DNA of 64,000 nt from Psammoneis japonica (Eukaryota), in the NCBI GenBank assembly GCA_008632985.1, contig QPGO01000165.1, forward strand, positions 62,001 to 126,000, read 5' to 3'. Below the pieces are notes generated by a model. It was not told where the DNA came from and made no database searches. It saw only the letters and a program-made list of their open reading frames with translations. A program made the translations under genes and the position numbers. Of the stretch, positions 3,149-62,797 are shown piece by piece (the stretch's first letter is position 1; each line of letters starts with the position of its first letter).

Positions 3149-3240
3149 CTCCGCCCGACAGCGACGCCATGATGAAAACTCCACTCTGTGACCCATTCAT
3201 CTTGTTGCAGTTCCTGATTGGACCTCTTTCATTGTTCAAC

Positions 3241-6690: not shown

Positions 6691-6716
6691 GAGGGCGTCA
6701 TGGTTAGCGCAACGGA

Positions 6717-6805: not shown

Positions 6806-6846
6806 TTATTTTTTTGTTCTCATTCATTCTCAATTCGTTCTCGACC

Positions 6847-10950: not shown

Positions 10951-11070
10951 AGACGCGCGAGTTCTACTTGTCGTTGGGCAGAGTGACTGTCGGTCTGGAT
11001 TTTCTTTGGTTTACAGTTCTTCTTGCACCGCATGTGCCAAGTCACTAACTTCTCGTGAGACGGTTGGGGT

Positions 11071-34650: not shown

Positions 34651-37400
34651 TGAATGGGAATGGTCTCATTTTGGAAGGCAGTGCCATGTCTGCTGCCATT
34701 CCCTCCAGCTTGCACTGCAAAAAATTCAGTGAGTGACAAATGACGATGATGCAACAGACAACAACACAACTCACTTTGATGCCAAAACAAAGCTTGGCAG
34801 CCTGGCTGCTGGCTGCATCTTTTTTGCCCCACACCCACAATCAAAGCCTCTCTCAAACACAGCGCCTGTTTCCAAGTGTTCTTTCTGAACAATGAAGAGC
34901 GATTTGTTGTCATTGCACATCCTCGCACTTCCCACAGCATCAGTGCTGGTGTTTGAATCAAAGCAACAAGCAATGCTGCAGCATGGCGACACCATCAGCG
35001 GCGCTGTCAATGAACTCTGATGAACAAATGAGCACAAAAACAGAAAATGATGGGCGACCATGCAACACCAAGTCTTTTTTGCTGCTTGCCTCCCACCCAT
35101 GATTTGACACTGGAGTTTTTCAAAAACAGCACCCAACTCAAAATGCTCTTTCCAAATGAAGAGCAATGTTTCATCAGCGTGCATGCTCTGTGACAACGGC
35201 AAAGACAATGCTGCAGCGGCTCTTGGTGTCACCAACCTGTGGTGTGTCGTGGCAAAAAAAATGTTGTGTGCGTTCAACCGCACAAAAAAAATCCACTCCA
35301 ATCCATTCCAGCAAACAAAGAGTCAACCAGTGCATGGGCTCAAAGCGCTGGATCAGATGTTGTGTCATTTGTCATTTTCTTCATGCACTCCGTCCATCTC
35401 TGTGGCCATCGGTCGGGCACGGGCTCCCCAGTTCATTTTGCCTGGAGCAGATGGGTCATGAGCCACCACCCACACATCAGCGCCATGCAGGGGTGCACAC
35501 AACACACTTCCACACTGCACAGTGCAGAGTTGGTGCAGCGCGCATTGAAGGGAGACACCATGGCAGAAGGTGCCAAGTGGAGTGTCAACAAGTGTTGGCT
35601 CAAAGCAAGTGGAGTGTTGGCTCAAAGCAGTTCAATGTGTTTTCAGTTGATTTGTTGGATCACTTTTTCCAAATGCTGGGCCCCCGCTCATTTTGTTGGG
35701 GCAATTCCCCATTTCATTGAAAATCCCCCCCCCCCCCCCCCAAACCTTCAAACCTGCCCGCATTGGCATCGGCGCCAATGTGGTGTGTTGTGAAAAAAAT
35801 GTGCGCCCGCATGACCGCGCAAAAAAATCTGCAGTGATCCATTGTGGCAAACAAAGAATCAAGAAACAGTCAACTTCAAACCAGTGAAATGGTTTCCAAA
35901 GACAATGCAGAACAGCAGTGGACAGAATTGCATCACCAAATGTGACAAAGAGCAAGCATGGCATCAAGGTCAACTTGAGTGCCGACTTGGAACAAGCATG
36001 TGACACATGGCTTGCCTTTGGGTTCCAGGCTAATTGTGCGCACAACCCTGCAATGCAAATGTGCTATGTCAATGAGTGCTTCTTTGCACTGACAACAAAG
36101 GAGTTGTTTTGATCTCATTGTGTCCAACAACCTTGTCAACTGCCTTTCTCACATCCGCTTGACATGATGTTGCAGATCTTTTGATGCTTTGCATCTTTTT
36201 TCGATTTTTCATGCACAGGGCTCCCCCCGTCTCCATTCAGAATCATTGCCACAATTGTGACACCATGGCGGCCAAGAACAAATTCATCAAGAATGCACCA
36301 TCGCCCTGTCCATTTGCTGTCATCCTCTTTCTGGTGCTGTGCTTTTGTGACATTCCCATTTCTGACAGAGTCTTTGCCGTCACTCATCACCTGCATGTCG
36401 TCCGGCAAAACAAGCCAACAAACCCAACAGAGGACTGCAATTTGAGCCCAATGAGGAAAGGGGACGGCACCAAGGATTCTTTTGACATTTGCATTGGTTG
36501 TTGTGCTGCAGTGGGGGTGCTGTGACCTTTGGGTCTTCTCATGTGTGCGGCCTGTCTGCAACACACGCAACAAGATCACAACTCAGCTGCAGCTGAAAAG
36601 GCAGCTGCTGCCACTGCAGCTCCGCATCTCTTTTTGTTGCTGTCTCAGATCACAATGGAACATGTTGTTGGATGTTTAGATTGTCGTGGGTGCATTCAGT
36701 GCTTGGTGCCGATTGGCTTTGGTGTGTGCCGGCAAGTGGCTTTGCTGCGATGGACGACAGTGGCCCACAAACAGTTTTTGAAACATCGAAATGCAAAGGT
36801 GGTTCAACTCAGGTTGGTTCTGGCAGTCCTCAATGCCATCCTGTGGACCTGCAAAACATTTGTCTTTCTGCTGCTTTGCATGATGCCAAACTGCCTGGAC
36901 CAGAAAAAGCATCAGGTCCCTTCTGCAGAATGGAAGAGAGAACTGTTTCCTCTTGCAAAGCCAGACAAAACAGACTGGAGAAACATTGCCATCTCCATCC
37001 CATTCATTGCATTCAAGTGGGCCCTGTGTGAGGCTTGGATCTGAGGCAAGCTCTTTCTTGAGATGACACAATTCACCCTTGGAAACTCGAGCCAAAGGTT
37101 GTTGCATTTGTCATCAACTTGGTGCTTCAAAAGAAGAGCTCATTTCCAGACAATGGAGAAGGGTGGACTTGCTTTTCACAGTCTCTTTTCTTTGCTCTGG
37201 CACAAAATTGCAAGCCAAAGAGCATCGCCTCCAATTGACTGTCCTCACTTTGGGCAATTGTTGTTGTGCAGCACGGCACAAGTCCATCACGTCCGTCTGT
37301 TGAGTGCAACCAACACACATCATCATGGGGAGCCAAGATGTCGTTCACACAAAAACCCGAAAACATCCCACAGCTCAAAGAACACATTGAGAACACTGCA

Positions 37401-40001: not shown

Positions 40002-40128
40002 TGTGACAAAAACACATGCATCGGTCATGTCAAACCTGCGTGACCCTGCAAATGTGCATTTCTTAGAAGATCTGAAGACAGAGCAAGAGTGCCAAACCAG
40101 CACATGAAGACCAGTGCAGAGTCTACGA
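40002..40128 (+). repeat. Copia-1 5' LTR (3'-truncated by a deletion into gag)
   Basis: Matches 45346-45473. Confidence 0.85.
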
Positions 40129-43100
40129 TGGCTGACTCACCATGGAGGATGTCAGGAATCATGTGCAAGCCTGCATGAATGGTCAAAACAGGCAAGCTCA
40201 AAATGCTGTGCAGATGGCGGAGTGCATCTCTCAGTCTCTCACTCCAGAAGCACGAGACAAGATCATTGCCAAACATGAGCAATGCACCATCAATGGCAAC
40301 TTTGTCAGAACATTGCTCTTCAAGCTGCTCACCCAACAGGCCATTGTTGACACTCATTCTGCTGCCAACTTCTTCCGTGAGAATCTGCCAAACATGGACA
40401 CCTGCATGGCTGGTGTGAACTCTGACGTCGAGAAGTTCAATGAGTGTGTCAAACTCAATTGTGAGGGACTGCGAGCTCTCAAGGTGAGAACTTCGATGAC
40501 CTCAACACATTCCTGTTCAAAGGACATGCAGCAGCAAGTGATGAGTTGTTCGTCAAGCACATGGCTCCCCACAAGGACAATTGTGACAATGGCAAAAACT
40601 GCTCACCTGAGAGGATCATGACACTTGCACTCAACAAGTGCACCAACCTCAAGTGACATGATCAATGGGGAGCACTGTCTCCTGCCAAAGAGGAGACAGT
40701 TGCACTCTCCACAGAGACAGCCACCATCAAGGACCACAATCTCAAGTTGACCAAGTCTTTTCTTAATCTGGCAAGTGCATGAGTCCCAAAAAGAAAGAAG
40801 ACAAGGACAAAGGCGGCAAAGAGATCAGAGACAAGAAGAAAGGAAAAGGGAAGAAGGGAGACTCTGACAACTCCTGGAAAAGAGTTCCGCCAAAGGACTC
40901 CAACCCTGCCAAACTCCAAAACTCATGGCAGTCGCAAGCACTGCCGGTGTCAATGCCACACCGCATGGGTCGTTCACCTGCCAGATGATGATGGACCCAA
41001 CAGTTGCAGGTTGAGAAAGTCACAAGAGTCAGGTGACAATTTGGATTCCTCAAAGAGAGTTTCATTTGCAGGTGCACTTGCTGCCATCCTTGATGACATC
41101 CAATCTGAGGAATGACTGTTCTTTGGAACCATCATGAGGGCTCTCTGCACATGGACATGCTGCGTGAAGATGGTGGCAACTCTGTTCCTTGGAGCCCTCA
41201 CCATGGCCTGGACAGCTGCAACAATGGCACCTCTGCTGGTGCCAATGATCCTGGTTGTCACATTTGGCCTTCCTCACAAAACATTCAAGAAAGTCATGAT
41301 GCCGACAATGACGTTGGGTGAGTGGATCATTTCACAAATCCCAGCTGATGCACGAGTGTTGCGCAAACACTTGCCATCAAACAAAAGCATGTGTTGTCCA
41401 AGGTGCATGACTGCAAAAAGAACAGGTCACTTGACAAACGTGGCTGAAAAACAAGCAACCTGCAAAGTGACCTTTGCACTGGCAGCCAACGCTTCTGCAG
41501 TCTCGTTCCAAGGCGTTTCAGCCAACCATCAAACCAACGCCGCTTGCGACTTGGATTCTTTCATGATTGGCATTGACAACCATGCCTCTTACACTGTGCC
41601 AAACAATTGCAAGCACTTCATTGGTGAACTCACACCAGTCAGGATGAAAGTGAGAGGCATTGGAGGTGAGCTCCTAAAGGTTGAATGGAGAGGAATGCTG
41701 AAATGGAAAATTGAGGATGACAATGGCAAGTCCATGCTTTCGCCATTTACAAAGCACTCTGTGTGCCCAACTTACCTGCATGTCTGTTCTGTCCTCAACA
41801 ATGGAGCTCACAGGCAAACAATCACAAGCCTGAACCCCATGGCACCATCTCTGTCAACCAAGAAGACAGGTGCCTGCTCATGTGGAATCAAAAGAAGTTT
41901 CAACACTTCATCCCACAGGATCCTGTGATGAACACAACCAGCTTCCATTCTGCGCCAGGTGCTTGCACTTGCCAAGTGTTTGCAGCTGCAGTGGAAGCCA
42001 AACAAAGGGTCAACAACATTGAGCAAGTCGCATGCCAGACTCACATGATCCCACCCGACAACAGTGACTCTGACAAAGACACTGATGCAGCACTGCAAGA
42101 CTCCTTCAAGGACTCTGCCAAGTCGTGACCTGATGAGTTGCAAGGAGCATGCAACAACGTTGACAGTGAGACAATTTTGTTTTGACCTGCAAATGAACAA
42201 GACAGGCACTCACCACACTCTGTTCCTGATGAGAATGAAGAGAACATGAAAGATCTCACTTCCAAAGAAGTCCAAACAAGACTCCGAGATCCAATCAACA
42301 TGATCCCTGACGAGGAGATCCTTGCTGCTGATGACAACCAAGGTGAATTGTTGCATTGGCATTGCTGGTTGGGCCACACATCATTCAAGATGACAAAGCT
42401 GCTGGGAGCACTTGGCATCCTTCCAAGACAACTGACTAAAGTTCAGAATCCAAAGTGTGCAGCATGCATCTGTGGAGCCATGACTGGGCGTCCATGGCGC
42501 ACCAAGTCCAAACAAGATAGAGGGCACATGCACATTGCTGCAAGACCAAGAGAAGTTGCACCCATCAACCAACTTGAAAGTCCAACTCCTGGATTTGTCC
42601 CTCAGCTCAAAGGGAGGCCTGCAAAACAAAGATGCAAGGCAGTGACAGTGTTTGTGGATCACCACAGTGGACTCAGCTGCATCCACTTGCAATGATCACT
42701 CACCTCTGAGGACACCCTGAAGGCTGAGAGAGCATTTGAAGCCTTCACTCACCAACATCACGTCCGAATCAAACACTGCTGTGCCAACAATGGAAGATTT
42801 GCTGACAATGCATTCATTCAAGACATTGAGAGAGAGGGACAGAAGATTTCCCACAGTGGAGCAAATGCTTGTTTTCAAAATGGCATCACTGAAAAATGGA
42901 TTTGCGACCTGCAAGAGCAAGCACACAAGCAATTGCTGCACGCAAAGGCAAGATGGCCATCAGCAATTGAATTGAACTCATGGCCAAGTGCCTTGCATTG
43001 CACAAATGAAATTAGGAACTCCTCACCTGATCATGCCAATGGTTCCTTGCTGATCAAGATGTTTGCTTCCATCAAGGCAGCACTGAAGATCAAGGCTCAC

Positions 43101-45345
43101 CACACTTTTGGATGTCCAGCCCATGCTCTGAACAATGGATTGCAAAGTGGAGGATGCATTGCAAAGTGGAGCTCAAGAGCAAGACTTGGAATCAATCTTG
43201 CTCCATCACCAAGACACGCTGGTTTGGTGTCACCAGCCCTGAATTTGGAAACAGGCCTGACGTTGCCTCAATTTCATCTGCAATGCGACAACTTTTTTGA
43301 AACAGTCAGACCATCTGCTGGAAATCCTCCAACATTTTCCCAATGGCAGACCACAGCAGGCTTCAAGACACAAGCTGAGCCAAGTCAATTCAACACATTT
43401 TGGCAATCAGAAGAGTCAATGGAGCCCACAGCAGCTCAAACACCAAGACTGGAACCAGAACCTGCAATTCTGCAACAACATGCTCCTGCACAAGAAAACA
43501 TGGGGCAGCCAAGTGTGAGCAGATGCGGCTGCAAATGACGACCAACAACACGCATGGCCGAAAGCCAGGAGCAACATGCCAAAGGTGTTGCATCATGTGC
43601 TGCTCACCACAAAGAGCACTGTGACGCAATGCATGAGGAGGACTGTTGTCTCCAAGATGACATGGACCAACCCCCATCATTTGTGACTTGATCCAACCAA
43701 GACACCATGCACTTTGACCAAGCTGTGCATGAACCTGACCAAGATGAATTTACAATGGCAGCAGTCAAAGAGGTCAATGACCACATCAAGCACAAACACT
43801 TGAGATTGATTCCCAGAGATCAAGTTCCAGAGGGAGTCAAGGTCTTGCCTTCAGTTTGGTCCATGAAATGCAAGTGAGACATCAAAACTCAAAAAGTGCA
43901 CAAGTGGAAAGCAAGATTGAATGCACACGGTGGAAAGCAGGAACATGCAATCAACTGCTTCAACACATGCAGCCCAGTTGTAAACTGGCACACTGCACGA
44001 TTGATCCTCATCCTGTCCATCCTCAACAGATGGCACACACGCCAAGTCAACTTTGTCCTTGCCTCTCTGCATGCTGACATTGAGTGTGACATGCACATGG
44101 AATTGCCCAAAGGAATTGAGACAAAGTGCGGCAATGGCAAGACTCATGTGTTGCAACTGCTGAAGAACCTGCATGGACAGAAGCAAGCAGGACGAGTTTG
44201 GGGAGAACATCTCAAAGAAGGATTGCTCAGAATTGGATTCAAACAATCCAGTGTTGACAAATGCCTTTGCCGCCGATGCAATGTGCCATTTGTGCACTGT
44301 GTTGATGATGGCATTTTCACTTCTCCAGACAAAGATGCCATGGACAAAGCAATTCTGGATGTCAAAAACAAAAACTTCGACATTGATGGTCAAGGGAGCA
44401 TTGAAGATCACCTCGGCATCAATGTTGAAATGCTTCCTGATGGTTGCACAAAACTTGTGCAACCACATCTCAGCCAGCAGATGCTGCAAATGGCGAACTT
44501 GTCAAAACAAGCAGCCAACAAATCCACTCCAGCTCCTTCTTCCATGATGCCACATCGAAACAAGAACAATTTGTCATTTGAAGGGAGCTTCCATTGTTGA
44601 GCTGTGATTGGTGAGCTCAACTTCCTCAAGAAGTGCACTCAACCTGGCATCGCTTGTGCGGCACATCAAGTTGCTTGGTTTTCTGAAGACCCAAAATGAG
44701 CGCACGGCGAAGCTGCACTGTGGCTTTGCAAGCACCTTTGCAACACTGCCCAAGAAGGAATCACACTTGATCCAATTGAGGACAAGTCATTGGAAGTTCA
44801 TGTGGATGCCGACTTTGCGGGCAATTGGAACAAGCTAACTGCAACTGTGACACAAGCACTGCCAAGTCAAGAACAGGTCATGTCATTGCATTTGCAGGAT
44901 GTCCAATTGCATGGTCATCCAAGTTGCAAACTCAAGTGGCATCAAGTGTGACTGCAGCTGAGTTCATCATGCTTTTGGAAAGTCTTCGAAGTGCCATCCC
45001 AATTGTGAACATTCTGAATGAGCTCAAGGGAAACAGTCATCCTGTTGTCTCAGACATGCCCAAGGTCCATTGCAAGGCATTTGAGGATGATTCCGGTGCT
45101 CTCAAGACAGCACGTTTGCCCAAGATGCGACCATGGACCAAACATTTCAACAACATGCTTCGTCATTTCAAGGATCATGTTCACCAGGGAATTGTTTCAA
45201 TCTGTCCTGTTGACACATGATGTCATCAGGGAGACATGTTCACAAAGCCTCTGCCACAGAATGACTTTCTCAGATACAGAAAGTTTCTTCTCTGCTGGTG
45301 GATTGTCAGATGCATCACTGTTCCACCCAACACTGTTGAAGGGAG

Positions 45346-45582
45346 TGTGACAAAAACACATGCATTGGTCATGTCAAACCTGCATGACCCTGTGTGTGTG
45401 CATTTCTTAGAAGATCTGAAGACAGAGCAAGAGTGCTGAACCCACACATGAAGACCAGCACAGAATCTGCAATGAGACATTTTGAAGAAACTCTGGACAT
45501 TTCAAAGAGACTCTTTTGATTGCAATTCAAAATGCTCACAAAGGATCACTTTCATTTTTACACCGGATTAGCTCACAATTTC
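45346..45582 (+). repeat. Copia-1 3' LTR
   Basis: Lies between the PPT and the TSD tctga. Confidence 0.8.
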
Positions 45583-46340: not shown

Positions 46341-46544
46341 ACACAGTTCTTCTTCTCGTTCTTGTCTTGCCAGATTTTTGAGCTTTTCTGCCAGTGTGAC
46401 TGTGCTGTTGCTGCAGCTGTGATCACAGAAATTTCTGCAGCACTCTGAAATCTGTGATTGTTAAAACCCCAGATTGCCATCCTGAGCTGGTGTTGCCTGG
46501 CCTCTTTTGGACAAAGAAATGCAGTGAATTGAGGCTGGAAGCAG

Positions 46545-48194
46545 TGATGCTGGGCCAGTGCAACAAAAAAATCTGCCCTCAGTTCTGCCCTGCAGAGAGC
46601 AGCAGTCATCCTGCGGGGAAGAAGACCCAGCTGCAGCAATCAGTGCTGAACCTGCATGCCAGCAATCAACCTGTGCAAACACACTTAAGGAGTTGGAAGC
46701 CAAAAGAAAAACCTTCCAAGAAGCACAAAAAATGCCACACCATCACCTGCACCATGGCTTTTGAGTGCCCATGGTTCCACTCAGTGACCATTGCAGCAAA
46801 GGCATGAACAACATTCTTGACTCATGTGATCATGAAAAAATGATGCTTGCACTGGATGTTTTGCCAACCCTTGGCTTTTTGGTGTTTGATCACTTTTTCT
46901 GCAAGGGAGGAAGCATGCTGCACCACTGCATTGGCAACAGCAGCTCTGACATTTCAACTCATTGATTGGAGGACAAAGGTGAGAATGCCATCACTTGCCA
47001 AAGGAAGCATTAAAAATCCAGTGATTGTGTTTGCACTCATTGCAAAGCCCGTCTTTTGGGCATTTGGTGCTTTTTTCTGTGATGGCAGAGTTTTTCTCTC
47101 ACTGTTGCTCTTGTTTTGTGGTCACTCACAGGTCTGCAAGGCACCCATTGCAGTGATGGCATGGACACCTTCATGGACTAACATGATCATGAAAAAAATG
47201 CTTGCAGTGGATTTCTTGCTGCTCCTCACCTCTTGGGTGTTTGGTGACTTTTGCTCTGAGAGAGGACACAAACAATGCTGCTGTGTCTCACACAGCAGCA
47301 CTCACAATGAAGCTGGGCACTCGGACTGCAAAGGTGAGAACAACAGAGTTTGACAACAAGAGTGTTGAAAATGTGATGGCCATGTTTGTTTGTTATGCAC
47401 ATGGCATCTTTTGGGTGTTTGGTGCTTTCCAAGTGTGGCACAGCATTTTCCTCACTGTCTCTCCTGTCTCACCATCACCCACAGGTCCACTTGGCACCCA
47501 TTGCATCCAAAGCACCAAGGTGATTGTGGACCCAATGGTTGTTAAAACACACATCTTAAGCCAAGGATGTGGAAAAGCACAGAGAAATCAGCGGTGAAAC
47601 CCTTGGTCATGCCTTCTGCACTGCGGAGCAGCTTGTTTTCTTGCCAAGCTGGTGGAAGTGCAGCAAGATGCTGGCTGTTCTTTGGGCCAATGAAGCTGTT
47701 TAGCAGCACTGTTTGAACATGAAACTCACAACAGGGATCTCAAACGGGTGCTTTGGAGCTTGTCAACATTGAAAGTGGTGCAAGTCGTCCACCTGCTTTC
47801 CCCAGCACAAGGAGAGCAAGTGTTTCTGCTGCACTCAGGACACCTGTGAGTGCTGCTTGCTGTGCCGCCAGATGTGCTGTTGGTGTTGGCTCATTTGCTG
47901 GGTTGCACGCAGTGATGCTCATGGTTGAGATGCCGCAGTGGAACTTTCAGCTTTTTTTTCATGTGCCATTGCACCCAACCTCGACAAGGACAGATGATTG
48001 CATCACACAAAAGGGGTGTGCAGGGTGGAATTTTTGGCTCCAGAAATTCCACCATGCCTTCTACCTGGGTGGAATGAACAGCAGATGCAGTGGAATTTTT
48101 GAGAAGATGCGACTGTGGCACTGACATTTTTGCATGTGCAAATTCCATTTTTCAGCAGAAAAATGCCACTTGGGTAGAATTTTGGAGGTGACGG
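46545..48194 (-). mobile_element. Internally deleted Crypton-like unit, in tandem with the next unit
   Basis: 46550-46810 matches 48195-48412, and 47810-48194 matches 51965-52345. It carries the same 177-bp array. Confidence 0.6.
46810..47480 (+). repeat. ~177-bp degenerate tandem array, 4 units
   Basis: Anchor tgggtgtttg.tgacttt.. at ~46880, 47057, 47234 and 47412. Confidence 0.75.
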
Positions 48195-48409
48195 GCCAAC
48201 ACAACCAAAAAATCTACCCTCAGTTCTGCCCTGCAGAGAGCAGCACTCATCCCATGGGGAAAAAGACCATGCTGCAGCAATCAGCACTGAACCTGTGCAA
48301 CAGTGGTCAACCTGCACAAACCATGCAAGAAGTTGAAGCCAAAAAAAATCAAAACTGGCCTTTGAATGCCTGCAGCTCCACTCAGTGCCCATTGCAGCAA
48401 AGGCACGAA

Positions 48410-49710
48410 TGCCATTGTGGACCATTGTGGCAGTGATGCAAATGATGTTTTTGTTGGATTTGTTGCTGACCCTTGCCTTTTGGGTGTTTGATGACTTTGA
48501 CAGGTGGGAGGAAGCACAAAGCACCGCCGCATCGGCAATGGTGGCGTTGATGTGTCCACCTGGCACTCGGGCAACAAATGTGAGAACTCCATTGTGGGCT
48601 GATGTGGCAGCAATGCAAACGATGTTTTTGTTTCATTTGTTGCCAAACCTCGTCTCTTGGGTGTTTGATGACTTTGACTGGGTGGAGGGAAGCACGAAGC
48701 ACCACCACATGGGCAACAGTGGGGTTCACAAGTCCACCCAGTGCTCGGACAGCAAAGGTGAGAATGCCATTGTTGACAAACGGGAGTGTGACAACAATGA
48801 TGCTTGTGTTGGAGCTTTTGACAAACCGTTTTTCTTGGGTGTTTGATGACTTTGACCAGGTGTGGGGAAGCATGAAGTGCCACCACGTTGCCAATGGTGG
48901 GGTTGACAAGTCCACCCAGCACTCGGACAGCAAGGTGAGAATGCCATCATGGACCAACAGGAATGTGACAACAATTGCAACGTACAGCTGCCAACAAGAG
49001 CCAATGCATCACGGCGACGTGTTGCAGTTTAAATGTCACAATGGGCGTGACAAAAATGACCTTTTGTCTGCATGCATGCTGCGTTGTGAATTCACAGCGG
49101 AGTGGTTCAATGCGTTGCCATTGGGCAGGAGGCCAGGGGTTCGAAACCCTGAGTGGGAGTTGTCTGCAGCAACGTTGATCACTGTCGAACGCGTAAAACT
49201 CTGTGCAGTTCTGTGTGTTCCTTCGTACGCACCCACACTGTTCCGCCAAAACCGTGCAGTGTTAGCACACGTTAGTTCTGCGCGTGACACATGGGGAGGA
49301 GTGCAATGCACAGCTGCCAATGAGAGTCAATGTATCACGGCGACGTGTTGCAGTTTAAATGTCACAATGGGCGTGACAAAAATGACCTTTTGTCTGCATG
49401 CATGCTGCACAATGATGCTTGTGTCAGATGTTTGCTGAACCTTTTCTCTTGGCTGTTTGATGACTTTGACAAGGAGACAGGCAGCCACAGCACCACCGTG
49501 TTGCCAACAGTGGGGTTGACAAGTCCACCCAGCACTCAGAGAGCAAAGGTGAGAATGCCATCAGGGGCCATTGGGGGTGTGACAACAATGGTGCTTGTGC
49601 CAGATTTTTGCTTGACCTTGTCTCTTGTGTGTTTGATGACTTTTGCCAGGAGACGGGAAGCGTGCAGTGCCGCCGCATTGTCAACAGCAGCATTGACAAG
49701 TCCACCCAGG
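48410..49710 (+). repeat. ~177-bp degenerate tandem array, 5 units, interrupted by a TRIM
   Basis: Anchor tgggtgtttgatgactttgac at ~48481, 48658, 48836, 49450 and 49627; caaaggtgagaatgcca also recurs. Confidence 0.85.
48976..49409 (+). mobile_element. TRIM-like miniature LTR element (434 bp) with an internal tRNA-like segment
   Basis: ~108-bp direct repeats at 48976-49083 and 49302-49409 (tgcaa...gctgca); PPT ggggaggag at 49293-49301; TSD caat (or acaat). Confidence 0.85.
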
Positions 49711-49823
49711 TGGCACCGTGCTGGCACTTGGAGCATGGGTGCCAAGGCCGCCACAGACTGTGAAGTCATAAAAAAAGGTGAGAACAAAATTTGCACTGTG
49801 AAGTTCATGTCACAATGGATTTG

Positions 49824-51929: not shown

Positions 51930-53915
51930 AGGATGAGGTGCAAGTCTGCCATCTGCTTTCTACAAGGAGCATGGATGTTTCAGTTGCACTCAGGACACCT
52001 GTGGGCACTGCTTGCCACACCACCAAACATGCAGTTGGCATTGGCACATCTGCCGGGATTGTTTGTGTCATTGATGCTGATGGTTGAGACAGCATCAGCA
52101 GAACTTTGAGAGTTCTTTTTGTTGACATGAGACATGAACTGAAGAGCAAGATCACGCAAAAACAAGCACGCAGGGTGGAAGTTTTGCTTCCAAAAATTCT
52201 GCCCTCCCTTCCACCTCAGCAGAAAAAACAAAGAATGTGTGGTGGAATTTTTGCAAAGAGTGGTGACTGCAAAGACAGTTTTGCATGTGTCAACTCCACT
52301 TTCCAGTTGAAAAATGCTGCTTGGGTAGAATTTCGGAGGTGACGGCAGAGTGTTTCAGTGTCATTGGTCAGCAGTTGCCAGGTTGAAGCTTCGCGCAAAT
52401 TTGTGCATGATTCAGGTGCATGTGCTCCACACCTTGATGTGGGCGTCATGCCATTTGGTTTGTCCATTCATTCGCATTCATTTGATGCAATTTGCGCATT
52501 TAGTTTTGCCAAGTTGGGCACTCTCTCTAGCCAGATTTAGTTCTCACAGACAGGAATCTTGTCCACAACATCTGCAATGCCTGCAACATTGACTCATGTG
52601 TTCGACAGGCCAGTGTTCTTGCACAACGCCATGTGCAGTTTTGCAAACAGACTTGGGGAAAGTGGCTGAGTTCTGCTCTCTGCATCAGAGACATTGTTCA
52701 TCAGCATCTTTTGACAGATCAGTTTCTACATCTGCTCATGTGGCTGTGCATGTTGTTGCTGTCTTCAATTGCAGAGGTGTGTTGGGATTGACAATGCAAG
52801 GTGCAGTGGGATGTCAAGAAACCATTCATTGTCATTCCCTTTCTTTTGCACCTGAGCTGTCAGAATGGGATGATCTTGCCAGCCTGGCATCACAAGTTTT
52901 GGAGCCTGTTGTGGTGCAAATGGTTGGATCTGATCTCATGCGCACCTTTTGCACCTGGCAGTTGCCTTCACTTGGTGGAAATGCCTGGCTTTGTGAGTGT
53001 CATGTGGCACGTTCAAGCATTTCTTAGACACTGGCAGACACTTCTGAACCACCAAACGCTTGAGACAAGTGGCAACCGAAGGTTGAACACCCGTTGTTGC
53101 AAATGTTGATCTCTTGAAATGTTCTTCCAACTGCAACCCTTTTCCTTCATGGACAGGACATTTGTGCTCATCATCAGCAAGAGCCACTTGAAGCCCAAAG
53201 AATGCAAGGAGCTGTTCATGCACAATGTTGTCAGTTTCAGGATTTGGCACCCATGGCATGGAGTCCAAGTGCTTGTTGCCTGTTGGGCAATTCACTCCTT
53301 GATCCAGTGTGAACCTGATGTGAGCCTTTTCTTCTTTTTTGGCTGAAGCTCTAGCTTGAGGATTTGTGTGAGTGGCATCTTCTGTTGCTGTGCCTGCCCA
53401 CAGCAGCAAACAACTTGAAACAAACAAGAGCTGCACCTTCATCTTCTCATCACTCAAGGGCACTGCGGCTGGCAAAGCAATCACATGTTGTGATCCAAGT
53501 TCAGCTGATCCCTTTTGTGTTGTGTTGACAATTGCTTCATTTGTTGTTGCCACATCTCCTTCAGTCGTGGGTGTCAAAGACAATGAAATTTTGAATTTTC
53601 CTGTCCAAAACAGGAATTTTGACAAATTTGATGTTTTTGAGATCTTTTTGAAAGATCGTTTCTTTGTCACAGACAGTCGGGGGGATCGAGTCATGCCTTG
53701 AGTCTCACCACTTCTTTTCACTTCATTGTCACAATGCAGCAACCCTCAAAAGGCAACTTTGCCTTTCACTCCTGCTTGGCAGGTTCCTTCTGTTCAATGG
53801 AATTCCCAACCATCACAAAGTGCAGTGGTCACTTGGAGAGAAACAGCCATCAGATCTTTTCATGGCATCTCACTGCCTGGCTGTCATAAAGAACATCTTA
53901 GCTGACCCCAACACC

Positions 53916-54540
53916 ATGAAGAACGTTGGAGCCTTTGTTGTTGCTGCTGCTCTGGCAGTCTTTTACACTGCCGCCATGTGGGACAATCCTCAGGGTGGTG
54001 TTGACAAAGCGTCCTTGTGCAATTTCTGCTCCAGCCAACAATGCCAAAGCCTGCAGCAGGACACTGATCATGAGGATGAGTGGGGACCTCTTGTTGGACA
54101 CTGGAAAGGCACTCTAGGTCGTGTGCCACCCAGTTTAGAGTTGCGCATCATCACTCATGTCTTGCTCATTTTCGGACAAGTCCTTGAGTGCAATCTTGAT
54201 CAGGGAGGTCAGTTCATCCCCACCATGGCAATGTGGTTCAATCCAGACACCAATGAGAATCATTTCTTTGTTGGCACCATCAATGGTGTGTGCACTGGAA
54301 AGCTTGATGATGCGACTGGAAATGTGATGACGGGAACATGGAAGAGACATGGCAGAAGCATGTCTCTAGATTGTGGTTGTTGCAATGTGCCCAACAAGGA
54401 GATGAGCATTCCTCACGAGGTTCAGTTTGCAGCAGAAAAAGCAGTGACAGGAGATCCAGACACAATTGTTGGAATGGAAGGCTGTTCCACCTGGATGATG
54501 ATGACTGCAACCAAGATGCACCATGTCCTCCACTGTTGGT
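53916..54540 (+). pseudogene. Decayed secreted/membrane-anchored protein, 5' part (continues at 61658-61906)
   Basis: Hydrophobic N-terminus; WKGTL...LDQGG..IP...TGKLD...MTGTW, repeated after the Copia as ...LPVPI...FQGTLDEKSMTGTV. Confidence 0.45.
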
Positions 54541-54816
54541 TGACAGGATTTGAACAGGATTTGGATGCGCGCGAAGCATCGCGCGCTGTTTGGTTTGCCG
54601 CACACAGTTTTGTGTGCTTTAGTTCCGCGCGTTCACGCGCGATGTAGTTTGCTTTCGAGCCACAAGGCTCACAAGAATGACAACAGCAGCCCGATTGTGC
54701 CGACTCACACGTCTTTCGGCTCCTGCAACGGTCTCTGAGCGGAGACTCATCTGCCATTTAGATAGCAGTAAGGAGTCATTGTTTGAATTCTTGCCATTTG
54801 CCTTCAATTTCTGTCA
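54541..54816 (+). repeat. Copia-2 5' LTR (276 bp)
   Basis: Matches 61371-61657. Confidence 0.95.
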
Positions 54817-55755
54817 GATTAACAGTCTTGCTCATTGTCAACCCATTGAGCAACCGCCATCGTCGTCGTTGATTTACCAACGACGCTATTTCAATTCTAC
54901 GTGGACCTCCGTATATGTTCTACATACATCGGCAAGTCTACGCGCATTCAACACCAGGGCATCGGCAGGAAGTTAACGTCACCGTCAAGTCTCCTTACCG
55001 CTGGATATCTGGATTGATTATACTACCTTTGATCGCTGAAGACATACATTCAACGGTCATGTCCAAGTCCATCCTTGATCCTCATCCCTTGACATGCCCA
55101 TTCATCGGTTAACGGTCAAGAACCCCACATGTTCAAGGATCTTCGTCGCTAAAGACACATGTGCACATGCATGTCTTCACGGCCAAGAACCTGTACCCAC
55201 TCTTCGGACTGCGGTTTTGCTGCCACTCCACAAGCACACCGAGTCCATTGCACCTGATCTGCCCCGGACTGCTGGTGCTCTGCAGTTCTGCCAGGTCCAC
55301 GAGGACGACTGTGAGAGCAAGCAGCCGTGATTGCAGCCTGCGTTGGGGCGAGGGTGCTTTCCCGCGTTTGTTCGTTCGTCCACAGCGCCTGACGCCTGCG
55401 TCAACTGGCCAGCCTGATCGGGAAATCCAACCGACACAAAATAAGAACGGTTCGGGGGTCTTGTCCACCTCCAGTCAGCTTGCCTGCAGGGGTTTACAAC
55501 CCGCCACTCCGCTCGCAAGCAACCCAAAGCACCACCAGCTGCGGGTTCGGACGTGCTGGCACAACTCTACGGTCCGGATGGGAAGTTTAGCACTTGACAA
55601 CGAACGGGATGACAAAGCCCGGCGACTTCTGATTTTAAGACAGTTCAAGATTTCAAGTCAAGTCCATTTCAAGTCAAGTCCATTCTCACCCAAGTTTCGA
55701 GTCTACCTTCGCTTCCCAACCAGAATTGATTGTCCTGACACCACTTTTGTCTACC

Positions 55756-58700
55756 GTGGTTCTCACTCGTCAGCAACAAACCGATGGTTTCGAGCACGTT
55801 GTTGGAACCGTGCTTGCCCAAGGTGCTGGGAGTCCTCTTCGTTTGGCTTTGGCCCAAGACGGCACGGACTCGCATCAGGAACTGTTCACGTTCACACCGC
55901 CCCAAATCGACTCGCTTGAGTGCGACAACGGCACCAATGCAATCCCTTTGCCCCGTGGTTATAAGAACATGTTAGCAGCACCAGTTGGCCTGCACATTGT
56001 CAAAGCACACAAAGGTCTTGACGTTGCCAACGACTCCTCTTTGTTCGCGCATGACGAGTTCCTTGCCTGCCGCCTCAGCCCGGACTGCATGTCCTCTCTG
56101 TCCATCGGCAGCTCACCCCTTGCACCTCCACATGTCACCAACCCGACCAAGGCACGCGACCCGGTGCGAGACTTCAAGCAAGGCATCAAGCGTGATCCCA
56201 CCGCTTTCATGGCTCTCAAATCCGACAAGCAGTGGCACACTTGGCACACCTCACTTGTGGCACAAGCCCGTGCCCAAGACGTCGAGTGCATTCTAGACTC
56301 GTCGTACAAACCGACCAGCCCCGAAGACAAACTGCTCTTTGCTGAACAGCAAAAGCACATGTTCGCCGTCTTCGAACGCATCCTTCTCACCGACAAGGGC
56401 AAGGCTCTCATTCGCGAAAATGTGGGGTCCTCTGACGCACAGACCGTCTGCCGCTCCTTGTCTGAACACGCGCTTGCCTCCACCCGTGCATCTGTCGAGT
56501 CATCCACCCTGCTCACGTGCCTCACCACCGCACGTCTTGGTGATGGCACTTGGAAAGGTCCGACCCACGGGTTCATCCTTCATTGGCAAGATCAGTTGCG
56601 CAAGTGCGAGGCACTCATCCCCGCCAGCGACCACTTCTCTGAAGGACAGAAGCGCGTCATGCTCGAGAATGCCGTGCACCCTGTCGAGGAACTCCGTGCT
56701 GTCAAGAACCAAGCTGATCAGCATCGCACGCAGAGTGGCAAGAGCCTCACATGCGATCAATGCTGTGGCTTGCTCCTCTCCGTGGCAGCTCAGTGCGACA
56801 GCACGTTTCAACCCAAGACGACACCTCGAGCTCCCCGACGCGCCATGTGCGCACACGACGTCCACTCCGAGGAACCGTCCGACGATGTGTTCTACGACAT
56901 TGACAGCGACGTTGACGTCCTTCAAGCCAATGCTGCCTGCACCCGTGGTCCCAGCCTCACCGGTGTCCAATGGAGACGTCTCCCTCCCGACCACCAACGG
57001 CTCTGGGATTCGTTGCCCGATTCCTCCAAGGCGATCATCCTTGAGCACTCTCGTCCGCCTCCCCGCAACCCGCGAGCCAGCAACTGCCATGAGTCTGTTG
57101 CGGCCAACCTTCACGACCAACACCTTGGGAGTGACGGTGATGTCAACTTGTCCAACACGACTCCTGCTGACTGTGGTGACTCCGCTGCACATGTGGACGC
57201 CATTTCGGACAATCCTGTCCTGGCGCACCTCACCAAGCGCAAGCCACTGCCACCCGGTGATCTGCAACGTCTGTTGTCTCCTAACCAAGCCCCAATGCCA
57301 GTCGACCGGGGCCATCCGCCGCTTCCTCTACCCCGCCAGCTTCTGCAGATGACACAGAACTTAACGGCCGCACTCACCGCCGCGTCAACAACCACAATGT
57401 CATTTGCTCTGCCTCTGCTCATCGCTCCACACGCACTGGCGCTCTAGTCAATCGTGGGGCCAACGGCGGCATTGCTGGCGACGACGTCCACGTCATCGCA
57501 CGCACCTCTCGCCAAGTCGACGTTCAGGGCATTGACGATCATCAATTGGTGGACATCCCCATTGTCACCGCTGGTGCCGTCATTGAGACCCAGCGTGGTC
57601 CCGTCATCGCCATCCTCCATCAGTGCGCATGCACGGGAAAGGGCAAGACCATCCATTCCTGCGGCCAGCTCGAATGGCACAAACAGGATGTCAACGATCG
57701 CTCTGTCAAGGTGCCCAACGGCTTGCAACGCATTGCCACTCCTGATGGCTGTGTCATCCCCATTGACATCAAGGCTGGCCTGCCTTGTGTTGCCATGCTT
57801 CCTTACACTGACGCCGAATGGGACACCCTGCCCCACGTCATCCTCACCGGTGATGACACATGGGACCCTTCCGTCCTCGATCACTCTGTCACTGACGATG
57901 ACCAGTGGTACGACGCGATCTCTGACCTGCAGGACGATCCCACTGCCAACCTGTTTGACGAATGCGGCAACTACCGTCACCGTGTCGTTGTCAACGAGAC
58001 CATCTTGTCCGCTTCCTTGTCTGCCGATCACGCGTCCGCCCTCGATGATCACCTCATTCCGAACGACGACGTGTTCTACGAGTGTCATCTGCATGCGATT
58101 GACCCCAAGGGCGATGACGTTCCACCTCCGGAGCGCACTGTACAGCCCAAGGACCCCCCCTTCGAGTCTCTTCGGCCTTGCTTTGGCTTCCTACCTGCCG
58201 ATGCGGTCCGTCGTACTTTTGACTGCACCACGCAGTGCGCCCGCATGCCCGCCGGTGCACACCTTCGCAAGGCCTTCAAATCACCCAACCCCGCCCTTAA
58301 TGTGCACCGTCGCAACGAGCCTGTCGCCACTGACACCGTTTGTGCCGACACCCCGGCCGTCGACTCTGGTTGCACCAGCGCCCAACTGTTTGTTGGCACC
58401 GAGTCTACCGTCACTGACGTCTGCGGCACTAGACGGACAAAGAGTTTGTCAACACACTCGAGGATCAGATCCGTGAACGTGGTGCCCCATCCAAACTCAT
58501 TAGCGACCGTGCTCAAGTTGAGATCAGCAACAAAGTGCTCGGGATCCTACGCGCCCTCTTCATCTCCAGCTGGCAAAGTGAGCCTCACCAGCAACACCAA
58601 AACTTTGCCGAGCGTCGACACCAGACTGTGAAGCGCATGGCGAACACTGTCATGGACCGTTTTGGTTCGCCCGCCCACACATGGCTGCTGGCGCTCATGT

Positions 58701-61297
58701 GCGTGTGCTTCACACTCAACCATGCAGCGTCCCCACGTCTCCACTGGCGCACGCCCCTCGAGACTCTCACTGGATCCACCCCGGACATCAGCCCATTGCT
58801 TCGCTTTCACTGGTGGGAACCAGTGCACTTCCACCTCGATGACTCCGATTGGCCGTCCGAATCTCGTGAGTTGCGTGGACGCTTCGTTGGCATTGCTGAG
58901 CACGTCGGCCACCAGATGACCTTCAAGATTCTATCTGACGAGACTCAGAAGATCCTCTGCCGGTCCAACGTTCGCTCCGCCACCCCCGATCCTGCCGTTC
59001 GAAACCTGCGTCTTGATCCTCCTGATGGGGAGCCACCTGAACCCATCATCAAATCTCGCCATGACGACAACCCCGTCGATTCTCCTGATGGGGAGATCAG
59101 GACACCCAAGATGCCAGTTTTCGATCCGCAAGACATCATTGGACGTACCTTCCTCATGCAGCCACAAGAGGACGGACAACGCCACAGAGCTCGTGTCGTC
59201 AAGGCCGTCGAAGACCACGAATGGAAAGTGAACGGCAATCCCGAGCTCACTAAGTTCGTCTGCTCTGTCAACAATGACGAATACGAGGAAGTCCTTGCCT
59301 GCAATGACATCATGAATCACATTGAGCAAGAAGACGAAGACACCACTGTTTGGAAATTTCGACGCATCGTGTCACACGAAGGCCCTCTGAAGCCTCACGA
59401 CCCAACCTGGAAAGGCTCAAGCTACAACATCATGCTTGAATGGGAAAGTGGGGAGATCACGTCCGAGCCTCTTGCCATCATCGCCAAGGACGACCCCGTC
59501 ACCTGTGCCATCTATGCACGAGAGAACGGACTCCTCGACACGGATGGATGGAAGCGGTTCCGCACCATCGCGAGGCGCCAAAAGAAGCCATTTCGCATGG
59601 CCAACCAAGCCAAGCTTCGCTCCTTCCGCACTGCACCTCGCTACAAGTACGGATACGAAGTTCCCCGGAACTACAAACACGCCATGTCACTGGACGAACG
59701 CAACGGCAACCGCAAGTGGGGAGACGCAACTAATCTCGAGATGGACCAACTCGACGAATACGAAGTCTTCCATGACTGCGGGCCCTTCAAGTCTTCCACT
59801 CCTCCTGCGGGACACAAGAAGATCCGAGTGCACCTGGTGTGCGACGTGAAACACGACGGTCGCCACAAGGCACGACTCGTAGCCGACGGGCACCTCACGG
59901 ACGTACCTGTCGACAGTGTCTACTCCGGAGCAGTCTCCCTTCGTGGCCTTCGGCTGATGATTTTCCTGGCCGAACTCAACGAGCTGGAGACATGGGCCAC
60001 CGACATTGGCAATGCCCACCTTGAAGCCACCACCAAGGAGAAGCTTTACATTGTAGCTGGACCCGAATTTGGCAAACTCGAAGGACACATCCTTGTCATC
60101 CACAAGGCACTGTATGGACTCCGCAGCTCCGGTCTCCGCTGGCACGAGCGCTTCGCCGACTGCCTGCGAGCTGAAGGCTTCTTCCCCTGCCGCGCCGAAC
60201 CCGACATTTGGATGCGCAGGAACGGCGACCACTATGAACACATTGCCGTTTATGTGGATGACCTCGCCATTGCCATGAAGGACCCTCAATCTTTCGTCGA
60301 CACTCTCACGGAAAAGTGCAAGTTCAAGCTCAAGGGTGCGGGACCCATTGAGTTCCATCTGGGTTGCGACTTTTCCCGGGACCCCGACGGAACCTTGTGC
60401 CTGTCTCCGCGCAAGTACATCGAGCGCATGGTCGACAGCTACGCCCGACTGTTTGGGGAGAAACCCACCACCAACGCCCTGTCACCTCTAGAGAAGGGTG
60501 ACCACCCCGAACTGGACACTTCCGAACTGCTGGGACCCGATGGCATTCACAAGTTCCAGTCTCTTGTTGGTTCACTCCAATGGGCAGTGTCCCTTGGTCG
60601 AATTGACATTACCACGGCCGTCATGTCACTCTCTAGCTTCCGAGCTGCGCCCCGTCAAGGCCACTTGGATCGTGCCAAACGCGTCTGTGGGTGCCTCTCC
60701 AAGATGCGACACGGTGCTCTCCGCGTTCGCACGGAAGAGCCCGACTGTTCGGATCTCCCTGCTCCGGCCTACGAATGGATGCATTCCGTGTATGGTGAAG
60801 CAGAAGAGATGATCCCGAAGGACGCTCCACCGCCCCTTGGCAAGTTCGTCACTACCACCCACTACGTCGATGCAAACTTGTACCATTGCATGCTCACCGG
60901 GCGCTCTGTCATGGGAATGCTCCACTTCCTCAACAAATTCCCGGCTGATTGGTTCTCCAAGAAACAAGCCACCGTGGAGACTGCAACCTACGGATCTGAA
61001 TTTGTTGCCGCAAGGAATTGTGTTGAGCAGATTATCGACCTGCGCATCACCCTGCGCTACCTTGGCGTCCCGATCCGTAATGTCAGTTACATGTTCGGTG
61101 ACAACAAGTCGGTTGTAGACAGTGCCACCATCCCGCACTCCAAGTTGCACAAGCGACACACTGCACTGTCGTTCCACCGTGTGCGTGAGGCAATTGCCTC
61201 TGGTTGCCTTGAGTTCCACTTCATCGAAGGCTCCCGCAACCCTGCTGACATTCTCAGCAAGCATTGGGGTTGCTCCCAAATCTGGGACCTTCTCTGA
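55756..61297 (+). pseudogene. Copia-2 gag-pol (frameshifts near 57.3 kb and 58.43 kb; late stop)
   Basis: Gag FKQGIKRD; protease NRGANGG (DRGANGG); integrase VATDTV..SEPHQQHQNFAERR; RT KHDGRHKARLVADG and IAVYVDD; RNase H YVDA..ETATYGSEF..GDN..NPADILSK. The start is probably ATG->GTG at 55756. Confidence 0.93.
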
Positions 61298-61370
61298 CCC
61301 CTCATGTTCTGGAACTTCATTCCATCCGAAGTCGAATCTGTTTCTGTGGCTCCTCAAGCAAACTGGGGAG

Positions 61371-61657
61371 TGACAGGATTTGAACAGGATTTGAACAGGA
61401 TTTGGATGCGCGCGAAGCATCGCGCGCTGTTCAGTTTACCGCGCACAGTTTTGTGTGCTTTAGTTCCGCGCGTTCACGCGCGACGCAGTTTGCTTTCGAG
61501 CCACAAGGCTCACAAGAATAACAACAGCAGCCCGATTGTGCCAACTTGCACGTCTTTCGGCTCCTGCAACGGTCTCTGAGCGGAGACTCATCTGCTGTTT
61601 AGACAGCAGCAAGGAGTTGTTGTTTGAATTCTTGCCATTTGCCTTCAATTTCTGTCA
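61371..61657 (+). repeat. Copia-2 3' LTR (287 bp; extra 11-bp tandem unit)
   Basis: Matches 54541-54816. Confidence 0.95.
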
Positions 61658-62797
61658 TTGGTTGTTGTTCAAATGGACAAGTCAGATGGCAATGTTGTGG
61701 AACCAAAGCTGTTTCTTCCTGATCTGAGTTGCCTGCCTGTGCCAATTCAGTCCTTTTTGATTGATGTTGGTGACAATGTCAAAATCATGCATGATGGCAG
61801 TGACTCAATTTTTCAAGGCACACTGGATGAAAAGTCAATGACTGGCACTGTCAACTGTGACAGCGCAGATGCAGCATTGGGCCTTGACCTTGTTGTGGAG
61901 CAATGATCATCCTAAACATGTGTTGGCAAAACAGTTTCCGAAGGAAATTGTCAACTTAGCAACAACAATCTTGTCACACTGTGCTGTGAACGGAGGTCAA
62001 TCTTGCCACTGCGTGGAATCACACTGCAAGTGGAGCTCACATCCTTGACTGGCAGATGTGTTTAGACCAATGGGCTTGACAAACTGAGAACAAAGTCAAG
62101 AAATGCTCAAAGGACTGTTGCTGATTGGCTGATGAAGAAGCTGACATGCTGGATGCCACACACAACCCTCACATCATTTTCTCATCTGAAAACCCGTGTG
62201 CACAAAGCCTCTTGTGCCAGCAAAGAAACACATGAGGATGCCCTTGCGGCTTGTGCACAACTTGAGGACACCTGGGAATGGAGACAAAAGGATTTTCTTG
62301 TGGTGGATGGATGCAGTTGAGCAAAAACAATTGGGGCCCTGGCAAGTGCAAAGATGACTCAAACAGAAGGTTTTCATGTGTGCTGGCAAATGTGTGGGAT
62401 GACAAACAAAACAGCACCAATTGGTGAGAGCAACAATGTCTGGCATGCATGTGAAGACAGACAACTCAAAGTTTGCTGTTTGTTTGAAACAAAGCCAAAG
62501 CAATGGTTTCACCCTCCTGGAACAAACCAATCATGTTGCTTTCTTTCTCTTCCGGCCAAAGAAAAATCCTGCAAAACCTGCAAACTTCAGGACAGGACAT
62601 TTTGACAAAAAACGTCAAGGGACACTCAATGACTTTTCTTGCATTTTTGATTCAAATTGACTGGCAAGTTTGGAATCATGTGGAACCCACATGTGAATTT
62701 GTGGTGTGTTCAATCCAACTGTGTGCCTCCTGAGCTGAAACCGACTGCATCACAAGATGCGCTAAAAACAACAAACACAAAAAATTAATTGCACACC

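Follow-up and report, generated by a model that had tools for sequence, protein, structure and literature searches.

Paired LTRs of a Ty1/copia retrotransposon differ only by transitions at YpR dinucleotides, consistent with in-place decay of TpA and CpG to TpG/CpA after insertion

The window, that is, the whole stretch of 64 kb of DNA analyzed here, contains at positions 54541-61657 an element whose two long terminal repeats (LTRs), apart from one 11-bp gap, differ from each other only at pyrimidine-purine (YpR) dinucleotides; the origin, direction and recurrence of these differences are the subject of this work. The element was assigned to the Ty1/copia LTR retrotransposons, with a target-site duplication, because it is bounded by direct repeats with TG..CA ends, has TTGGT on both sides and encodes a copia-type reverse transcriptase (RT). 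All its parts lie on the forward strand. From left to right they are a target-site duplication of 5 bp, TTGGT (54536-54540), identical to the five bases outside the other LTR; a 5' LTR of 276 nt with two copies of an 11-nt unit at its start (54541-54816); an internal region of 6.55 kb (54817-61370), with 57% GC, a TA observed to expected ratio (O/E) of 0.27 and a CG O/E of 0.94; a putative polypurine tract, GGGGAG, assigned by position only and lying directly 5' of the 3' LTR (61365-61370); a 3' LTR of 287 nt with three copies of the 11-nt unit (61371-61657); and the right target-site duplication TTGGT, matching the left copy (61658-61662). The boundaries of both LTRs, with their TG..CA ends, come from the LTR alignment.

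The gag-pol frame of this copy is split across three frames because it is frameshifted with respect to other copies of the family, which carry an extra single base at 57289 and near 58428-58430. The longest pol open reading frame (ORF; 58433-61297, forward strand, 954 aa) contains at residues 458-669 (around nt 59804-60439) the domain RVT_2 (Pfam PF07727; E = 1e-26, 94.5 bits vs. a cut-off of 31.6). This RT domain was the sole Pfam match in the element, neither rve nor gag_pre-integrase being found by Pfam in 54541-61657 even at E <= 1. The nearest protein-database match to the 954-aa pol was 68% identical, and 49 environmental loci encoding pol relatives were retrieved, with identities mostly of 57-73% and 40% at the lowest. 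The search with the pol protein gave nothing in viral contigs and two uninformative loci in prokaryote genome contigs, and a degenerate LTR pattern matched 0 stretches in metagenome contigs. In public run X1, contigs were found that join 54535 to 61658 without the element; we take them to come from an older paralogue of the flanking repeat that lacks the insertion, because the one listed contig across the left flank differs from the window at 38 of about 236 letters.

Aligned globally, 54541-54816 (276 nt) and 61371-61657 (287 nt) showed 16 mismatched bases and one 11-bp gap; the gap reflects a repeat-unit slip where the LTR starts, the former having two and the latter three of the 11-nt units. 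All 16 mismatches were transitions and all 16 were located within YpR dinucleotides; YpR steps cover 144 of the 276 aligned positions (52%), and none of the 132 non-YpR positions differed. The mismatches corresponded to 12 dinucleotide sites (CA/TG at four, TA/CA at three, TA/TG at two, CG/CA at two, and CG/TG at one), which were scattered along LTR positions 50-236 and formed no single tract. The chance of 12 independent sites all falling in YpR was P = 4e-4, the absence of transversions not being counted in. Unchanged sites comprised two TA/TA, both of them TTAG, and 19 CG/CG. The realignment thus returned the same classes and counts as an earlier, first-pass annotation of this DNA, which had described 12 sites and an 11-bp indel, all sites being YpR (five TA vs. 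TG/CA, four TG vs. CA, and three CG vs. TG/CA), with no differences elsewhere.

By our reading each LTR carries eight derived changes; those of the 5' LTR (54541-54816) are TG at three inferred ancestral TA sites, CA at three others and two states derived from CpG. Visible hits in the pair amounted, by our count, to six TG and seven CA, with both outcomes in both LTRs. Since derived states occur in both LTRs and on both strands, the changes are best placed after integration. An origin before integration, through mistakes of the RT, editing of the RNA or the action of a deaminase on the cDNA, appears extremely unlikely: both LTRs are copied from one template, so that earlier changes would be shared by the two and not different between them, and editing of cDNA marks one strand, whereas TG and CA are found here in both LTRs. 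In addition, the LTRs and the internal region give matching estimates of TA loss (0.69 and 0.63, respectively, the latter calculated as 1 - 0.27/0.73). Part of the TA loss of the family could still have accumulated in this way over replication cycles, the TA O/E of the element (0.27) being below that of its relatives. The first-pass view that the substitutions arose in place, fast, on both strands and in both LTRs, to the exclusion of RT error or RNA editing before integration, is in agreement with eight hits per LTR, with the common template of the two LTRs and with the rates given below.

The direction of change was assessed with the environmental pol relatives, 45 of which had a TA O/E of 0.52-1.02 (median 0.73); L014, L034 and L036 were TA-poor (0.31, 0.27, and 0.13, respectively). 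A column was considered conserved when at least 80% of the TA-normal loci agreed, L014, L034, L036 and L043 (O/E 0.53) being left outside the consensus. Tyrosine codons are TAY, those of histidine CAY and those of cysteine TGY; replacement of a conserved Tyr by His or Cys therefore means TA to CA or TG in the DNA, the opposite of repeat-induced point mutation (RIP). The element has His or Cys in place of a conserved Tyr at 6 of 24 positions, and L014, L034, and L036 have one or the other at 11/20, 14/16, and 12/15 positions, respectively. Among 44 TA-normal loci the count was zero in 37, one in five, and 3 of 22 in L045 and L046, which are a near-identical, distant pair. The reverse change, from His/Cys to Tyr, was absent from the element and from L014, L034 and L036, and was found once each in 5 of the 44 controls.

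Within the window, TA O/E also decreased with age, from 0.3-0.66 in a gene island and 0.27 in the young element to 0.05 in an old one, with values of 0.02-0.14 around the two copia elements. This second, older copia element (40002-45474, forward strand) has LTRs of about 129 nt (40002-40130 and 45346-45474) that are 88-89% identical, a TA O/E of about 0.05 and a CG O/E of 0.2-0.3, and in it Pfam detects gag_pre-integrase upstream of RVT_2. Tyr is missing altogether from the 240 residues of its RT stretch (43878-44597), where CVDD stands in place of the catalytic YVDD; this RT differs from the 54541-61657 family at 112 of 159 conserved positions, and only its Tyr positions were used.

A RIP-like process, with TG/CA ancestral and C-to-T changes at CpA making TA as in Neurospora, could be suspected from the five LTR sites that pair TA with TG or CA, which look RIP-like if they are not polarized, and from position 55151, where the window copy has TA vs. 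TG in 98% of the family depth. Against it, TA is depleted, and the older the DNA the stronger the depletion (TA O/E of 0.27 for the young element, 0.05 for the old one and 0.02-0.14 around them), Tyr is lost to His/Cys with no reverse change in the element or the three TA-poor loci, and sites with TG in one LTR and CA in the other are impossible under RIP; we find such a process hardly credible. The polarity supported here is from TA to TG/CA, the reverse of the RIP direction. The opposite polarity had been named in the first-pass annotation as a result that would refute it, and what was found was Tyr lost and not gained, a family contig with TA, and TA falling with age.

The four sites with TG in one LTR and CA in the other were examined with an independent-hit model, in which each ancestral TA decays separately in each LTR and TG or CA is equally likely as outcome. 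The counts entered were 2 TA/TA, 5 TA/x, 4 CA/TG, 19 CG/CG and 3 CG/x, x standing for a changed state. The model with TA as origin fitted the data (best fit at a loss probability of p = 0.69; expected unchanged, single and visible double sites of 1.4, 6.2 and 3.4, respectively), whereas CG as origin gave 0.7 expected doubles at best fit and around 0.1 at the single-hit rate vs. 4 observed. The reconstructed ancestral LTR had a TA count of 14.4, corresponding to an O/E of 0.87, which is within the range of the relatives (median 0.73). At the first of these sites the 5' LTR has TG, the 3' LTR has CA, and one family contig has TA. The fit indicates that the four sites would each represent an ancestral TA, not a CG, hit once per LTR on opposite strands. 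The first-pass annotation had explained them by two hits on one ancestral TA or CG; two independent hits are retained here, and the CG option was not borne out.

Methylation-driven CpG decay alone, under which each double would be a CpG struck in the two LTRs and the TA sites would be due to chance, would account for the three LTR sites with CG vs. TG/CA, one of them polarized with CG ancestral, and for the depletion of CpG in old DNA. With 19 CpGs unchanged and three hit once, it leads to the above expectation of around 0.1 visible double instead of four; it leaves 5 of the 12 sites, which are TA sites, as well as the TA O/E of 0.05 and the Tyr losses unexplained, and L034 and L036 show 97 intact CpGs and yet 20 doubles. 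We regard this explanation as very improbable.

The YpR pattern is better described, on these comparisons, as two decays with a common end point, a dominant one from TpA to TpG/CpA and a slower one from CpG to TpG/CpA. Nine of the 12 LTR sites were assigned to TA (five single and four double) and three to CG, one of the latter polarized. The hits per site per copy in the LTR pair were 1.16 for TA, 0.073 for CG, and below 0.0113 for non-YpR positions (95% bound from 132 positions with no change); the TA rate was thus 16 times the CG rate and at least 100 times the background. The two decays can be considered separable because each of them occurs without the other in other hosts: TA was lost without CG loss in L034 and L036 (TA O/E 0.27 and 0.13, CG O/E 0.80 and 0.74, respectively), and CG without TA loss in L006, L025, L033, and L045-L048. 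The single YpR rule of the first-pass annotation consequently stands in that all 12 sites are YpR, but it has to be split into a TA and a CG decay, each of which is found alone in some hosts. The Kimura two-parameter distance (K2P) of the LTR pair was 0.062, and non-YpR positions allow at most 0.022, which bears out the warning that LTR-based dating would be inflated, in this case at least 2.75-fold.

The same comparison was made for other copies and other LTR pairs, for which the spectra of controls are given as YpR transitions/other transitions/transversions. The TA-poor copies L034 and L036, which belong to another family, were 94.5% identical over 1723 nt, and 74 of their 93 differences were YpR transitions. 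Their site counts (5 TA/TA, 26 TA/x, 20 CA/TG, 97 CG/CG, and 8 CG/x) were close to those expected from the TA model for the first three classes (4.6, 26.8, and 19.6, respectively); CpG being nearly intact in this pair, the CA/TG doubles there would come from TA. TA-normal copies gave 61/56/26, with no CA/TG doubles, for L019 vs. L023, and 63/75/25 for L017 vs. L023, and the LTR pairs of TA-normal L001 (537 nt) and of L010 gave 6/13/1 and 0/2/2, respectively. Within the window, the LTR pair of the older copia element yielded 8/3/2, and 11 other repeat pairs (72-94% identical) yielded 158/72/135, with 53 CA/TG columns. Extension to other LTR pairs had been proposed in the first-pass annotation; the older pair of the window and the TA-poor environmental copies presented the same spectrum, and TA-normal hosts an ordinary one. 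Judging from TA-poor L014, L034 and L036, the same decay takes place in organisms sampled elsewhere, and the finding of TA-poor copies in unrelated environmental samples might mean that the process is widespread in nature. These three loci come from metagenome contigs, and most of their conserved Tyr have become His or Cys.

Variation within the family was analyzed in run X1, where 385 of 450 variable places were transitions. The per-place data cover 40 listed places of 460 variable ones, with 61543 as the one LTR site among them, and YpR transitions made up 33 of these 40. At 13 listed places the window copy has TG or CA vs. TA in 18-73% of the family depth, which fits recurrent independent decay; six listed places are neighboring TG/CA pairs, and one of these six shows all three states. 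At 61543 the 3' LTR has A vs. G in 95% of the family depth, that is, CpG to CpA in that LTR. Four non-YpR transitions among the listed places had shares of 0.97-1.0, as for lineage-fixed differences. This polymorphism, which itself consists mostly of YpR transitions, lends some support to the possibility that the LTR differences were imported from other family members by gene conversion or ectopic recombination, or introduced by assembly or polishing, and that their spectrum is that of the family. We consider such an import decidedly improbable. The target-site duplication is intact, so both LTRs come from one insertion; the differences extend over LTR positions 50-236 and not over one tract; none of the non-YpR lineage variants of the family is among the 16 differences; and the counts fit the independent-hit model, with a normal reconstructed TA content. 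Import would in any case leave untouched the conclusion that TA and CG decay within the family.

Composition of the window was in keeping with a process that extends well beyond the element. Outside the element the O/E values were 0.13 for TA, 0.40 for CG, 1.67 for TG, and 1.69 for CA; TA O/E was below 0.2 in 52 of 64 1-kb windows, and CG O/E was 0.09-0.46 in old DNA. Ordinary genes were spared within the 64-kb window, TA O/E being 0.0-0.3 in copia and repeat DNA vs. 0.3-0.66 in the gene island. In 46.9 kb of depleted DNA, 202 TAs were left, and their survival varied with context: it was 0.00 for ATAT, 0.01 for ATAC/GTAT, and 0.02 for GTAC and ATAG/CTAT, and the best values corresponded to TTAA (0.24) and CTAA/TTAG (0.14). 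A strand asymmetry of TG vs. CA was also tried as a signal and was dropped, TA-normal relatives already having at least as much TG as CA on the sense strand.

These data bear on whether a passive regional mutation bias could be sufficient, heterochromatic repeat DNA escaping the repair of spontaneous lesions at TA and at methylated CG. TA and CG depletion do coincide (r = 0.75 over 64 1-kb windows), the gene island is spared, and no strand-level motif was found, all of which a passive bias would accommodate. We nevertheless judge it improbable, as other hosts show one of the two losses without the other (L034 and L036 vs. L006, L025, and L045-L048), and survival depends on the tetranucleotide (ATAT 0.00 vs. 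TTAA 0.24). To our knowledge, no spontaneous lesion gives A:T to G:C changes specifically at TpA at 100 times the background, and this counts against passive bias. So does the comparable process in Bigelowiella natans, which was active in some lines and inactive in the rest (Mettrop et al., bioRxiv 10.64898/2026.01.13.699255).

The remaining features of the window were located as follows. The near-normal gene island (6501-11000) has a CG O/E of about 1 along with the TA values mentioned above and contains host-type ORFs, among them one for an MRS2-like Mg transporter that carries an EF-hand at its C terminus (6625-8430) and another with a BTB domain (9523-10950); at its right edge the composition drops over about 1 kb to a TA O/E of 0.0 from 11501 onward. 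The relatives of the MRS2-like ORF with readable names were from Attheya, Ditylum, Odontella, Epithemia, Cyclotella and Skeletonema (42-51% identity), with one weak Symbiodinium match at 29%; two more, whose tags are truncated or coded, are probably diatoms as well, and the best matches overall were at 57%. Because the named relatives are diatoms but for Symbiodinium, the host looks diatom-like. A dinoflagellate host, with 5-hydroxymethyluracil at TpA, was considered and dropped: an Rfam search of the window gave 0 families, a spliced-leader motif gave 0 matches, and the named relatives pointed to diatoms. B. natans as host was discarded too, since none of the protein matches was near-identical and the best were at 57% and 68%. 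An inverted match of 91 nt and 90% identity links 3064-3153, in depleted DNA, with 6713-6801, at the start of the gene island; the depleted copy has CA at three YpR differences, at which the island copy has TA (one) or CG (two).

Two ORFs with family matches were found in strongly TA-depleted DNA, at 24950-25447 (HAD_SAK_2, E = 2e-7) and 36526-37041 (DUF7733, E = 2e-15), and they may be either decayed genes or parts of mobile elements. The window contains 78 stop-to-stop ORFs of at least 150 aa, most of them without a family match and probably spurious. Its stop codons comprise 176 TAA and 143 TAG vs. 1506 TGA, the first two being around tenfold rarer because TA is nearly absent. Diverged repeats with a period of about 177-178 bp and duplicates spaced at 4.15 kb (families D1-D14) occupy 46500-49750 and 51960-52350, and CA/TG doubles are the most frequent class of difference among them, which is what saturated decay of TA and CG should give. 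Finally, a 1.4-kb element at 33277-34651 is bounded by 53-nt terminal inverted repeats (TIRs; 33277-33329 and 34599-34651) with two differences, one of them CA vs. TA; no Pfam domains were detected in its ORFs.

Taken together, we propose, with a probability of about 0.7, that a copia insertion was followed by in-place change through two context-specific decays ending in TG/CA. According to this proposal, a Ty1/copia retrotransposon would have landed in the nuclear genome of a diatom-like host, in an old region derived from repeats. From then on, TpA would have changed to TpG/CpA by A:T to G:C transitions on one or the other strand of the TA step, which is its own complement, and CpG would have changed more slowly to TpG/CpA, the usual outcome of cytosine methylation in silenced transposons. 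Over long times the same decays would leave most of the window with about 0.05 of the expected TA and 0.1-0.4 of the expected CG, sparing the gene island. Comparison of sequences demonstrates the spectrum, its polarity, the timing after insertion, the regional confinement, and the recurrence in other copies and in some environmental relatives. As for the cause, we infer that the TA decay is an enzyme-driven DNA editing targeted to chromatin or repeats. The class of enzyme responsible may tentatively be sought in an adenine deaminase acting at 5'-TA, of ADAT2/TadA type, as proposed for B. natans, a suggestion to which we give slightly less than an even chance; a route through thymine modification instead seems unlikely.

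Several observations weigh against the proposal. Direct polarization covers only 2 of the 12 LTR sites, family depth providing it for 61543 and one contig for the first TG/CA site, and only two LTR pairs of the host organism were examined. Position 55151 changes in the opposite direction. In the independent-hit model all CpGs are taken to be hit at the same rate; the 19 conserved ones lie mostly in GCGCGC runs and are possibly protected, and a hot isolated CpG could yield some of the doubles. The family is very abundant, 14,633 run X1 contigs being placed on the element with an inside depth tens to hundreds of times that of the flanks, and this favors import. No extended motif was found at the level of the strand, the edited strand having A at -2 in 6 of 11 informative events (6 vs. 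5), and the data do not separate adenine deamination from thymine modification or a passive repair bias. The TIR element has a TA O/E of 0.47-0.8 and a CG O/E of 0.7-1.25 inside DNA with a TA O/E of 0.0, and to account for its normal TA one has to suppose either that it is a very young insertion, of a DNA transposon or similar to a miniature inverted-repeat transposable element (MITE), or that it belongs to a class exempt from the decay. Lastly, the evidence for the decay is comparative, being drawn from LTR pairs, copies, and codons.

The proposed decay has practical consequences. Pairs of LTRs would provide a natural, internally controlled measure of TpA hypermutation, and the loss of ATAT with retention of TTAA and TTAG constitutes a testable fingerprint for the enzyme. 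LTR insertion dates and ORF statistics are made unreliable, the loss of TAA and TAG makes long spurious ORFs abundant, and decayed transposons without tyrosines become harder to detect by homology.

The pattern shares several characteristics with known systems. In RIP of ascomycete fungi, TpA is made from CpA/TpG and the AT content is raised. The decay described here resembles it in being a transition-only, dinucleotide-specific, in-place decay of mobile DNA on both strands, which ruins coding and confounds dating, but it runs in the opposite direction, TpA being destroyed while TG/CA accumulate, and in a non-fungal host. Vertebrates and plants are known for a methylation-driven decay of CpG in silenced transposons, and transposon methylation also occurs in diatoms; that decay has its counterpart here in 3 of the 12 LTR sites and in a CpG O/E of 0.1-0.4 in old repeats vs. 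values near 1 for both the young element and the gene island, although it explains only a minority of the LTR differences and leaves TpA untouched. As in diatom Ty1/copia elements, of which 'CoDi' lineages were reportedly described by Maumus et al. in 2009, the element has an LTR pair with TG..CA ends, a 5-bp target-site duplication and RVT_2, and many relatives with 57-73% identity in aquatic metagenomes; a point of difference is that the RT domain is all that Pfam detects in this copy. Among retroelement-directed activities in animals, APOBEC3 carries out C-to-U editing on cDNA, and ADAR carries out A-to-I editing on double-stranded RNA with a 5' U preference. The likeness to them lies in a deaminase-type, context-specific transition hypermutation against retroelements, and the difference in that they act before integration, on one cDNA strand or on RNA, whereas the changes described here would be made after integration on both strands of chromosomal DNA.

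The closest parallel is that of the chlorarachniophyte B. natans. A search of the literature, in which subscription journals were thinly covered, returned no report of TpA depletion or hypermutation in diatoms and the B. natans preprint as the sole description found; for DNA adenine deamination as a genome defense it returned only base-editing papers. According to that preprint, 231 of 302 nuclear mutations in mutation-accumulation lines were located in two integrated viral regions, and those in the viral regions were, save one, A:T to G:C changes, all of these at TpA; some of the lines, but not all, mutated at a rate about 1000 times that of the baseline, and an ADAT2-type DNA adenosine deaminase was proposed by its authors (Mettrop et al., bioRxiv 10.64898/2026.01.13.699255). 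The text of the preprint makes no mention of diatom, LTR, retrotransposon or CpG (10.64898/2026.01.13.699255).

As in that system of nucleocytoplasmic large DNA virus (NCLDV) and virophage DNA, A:T to G:C change in our window is limited to TpA and gives TpG or CpA according to the strand, its rate exceeds the background by orders of magnitude, it is limited to foreign or mobile DNA (here, within the window), and TpA is depleted in the long term with a gain of CpA and TpG; the low-TpA genes of B. natans were enriched in reverse-transcriptase and DDE domains (10.64898/2026.01.13.699255). The two cases differ in the host, which is here a diatom-like stramenopile; in the targets, which are LTR retrotransposons plus most of 64 kb, with TA O/E of 0.02-0.1 vs. 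0.45 in the NCLDV region; in the CpG decay that runs alongside here; and in the evidence, comparative here and de novo mutations there. If diatoms too hypermutate TpA in mobile DNA, this would be a candidate for a widespread eukaryotic defense opposite to RIP, and not a curiosity of one chlorarachniophyte. A TpA-directed editing shared as a defense by distant algae of the stramenopile-alveolate-Rhizaria (SAR) group (diatoms and chlorarachniophytes), with all that this includes on speed, on the rewriting of more than 80% of 64 kb and on wide occurrence, is possible rather than probable; under it, about two thirds of the TAs of a retrotransposon would be removed before one background LTR substitution. 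By analogy with B. natans, the window may be read as a second, independent host of a process of that type, acting on LTR retrotransposons together with ordinary CpG decay.

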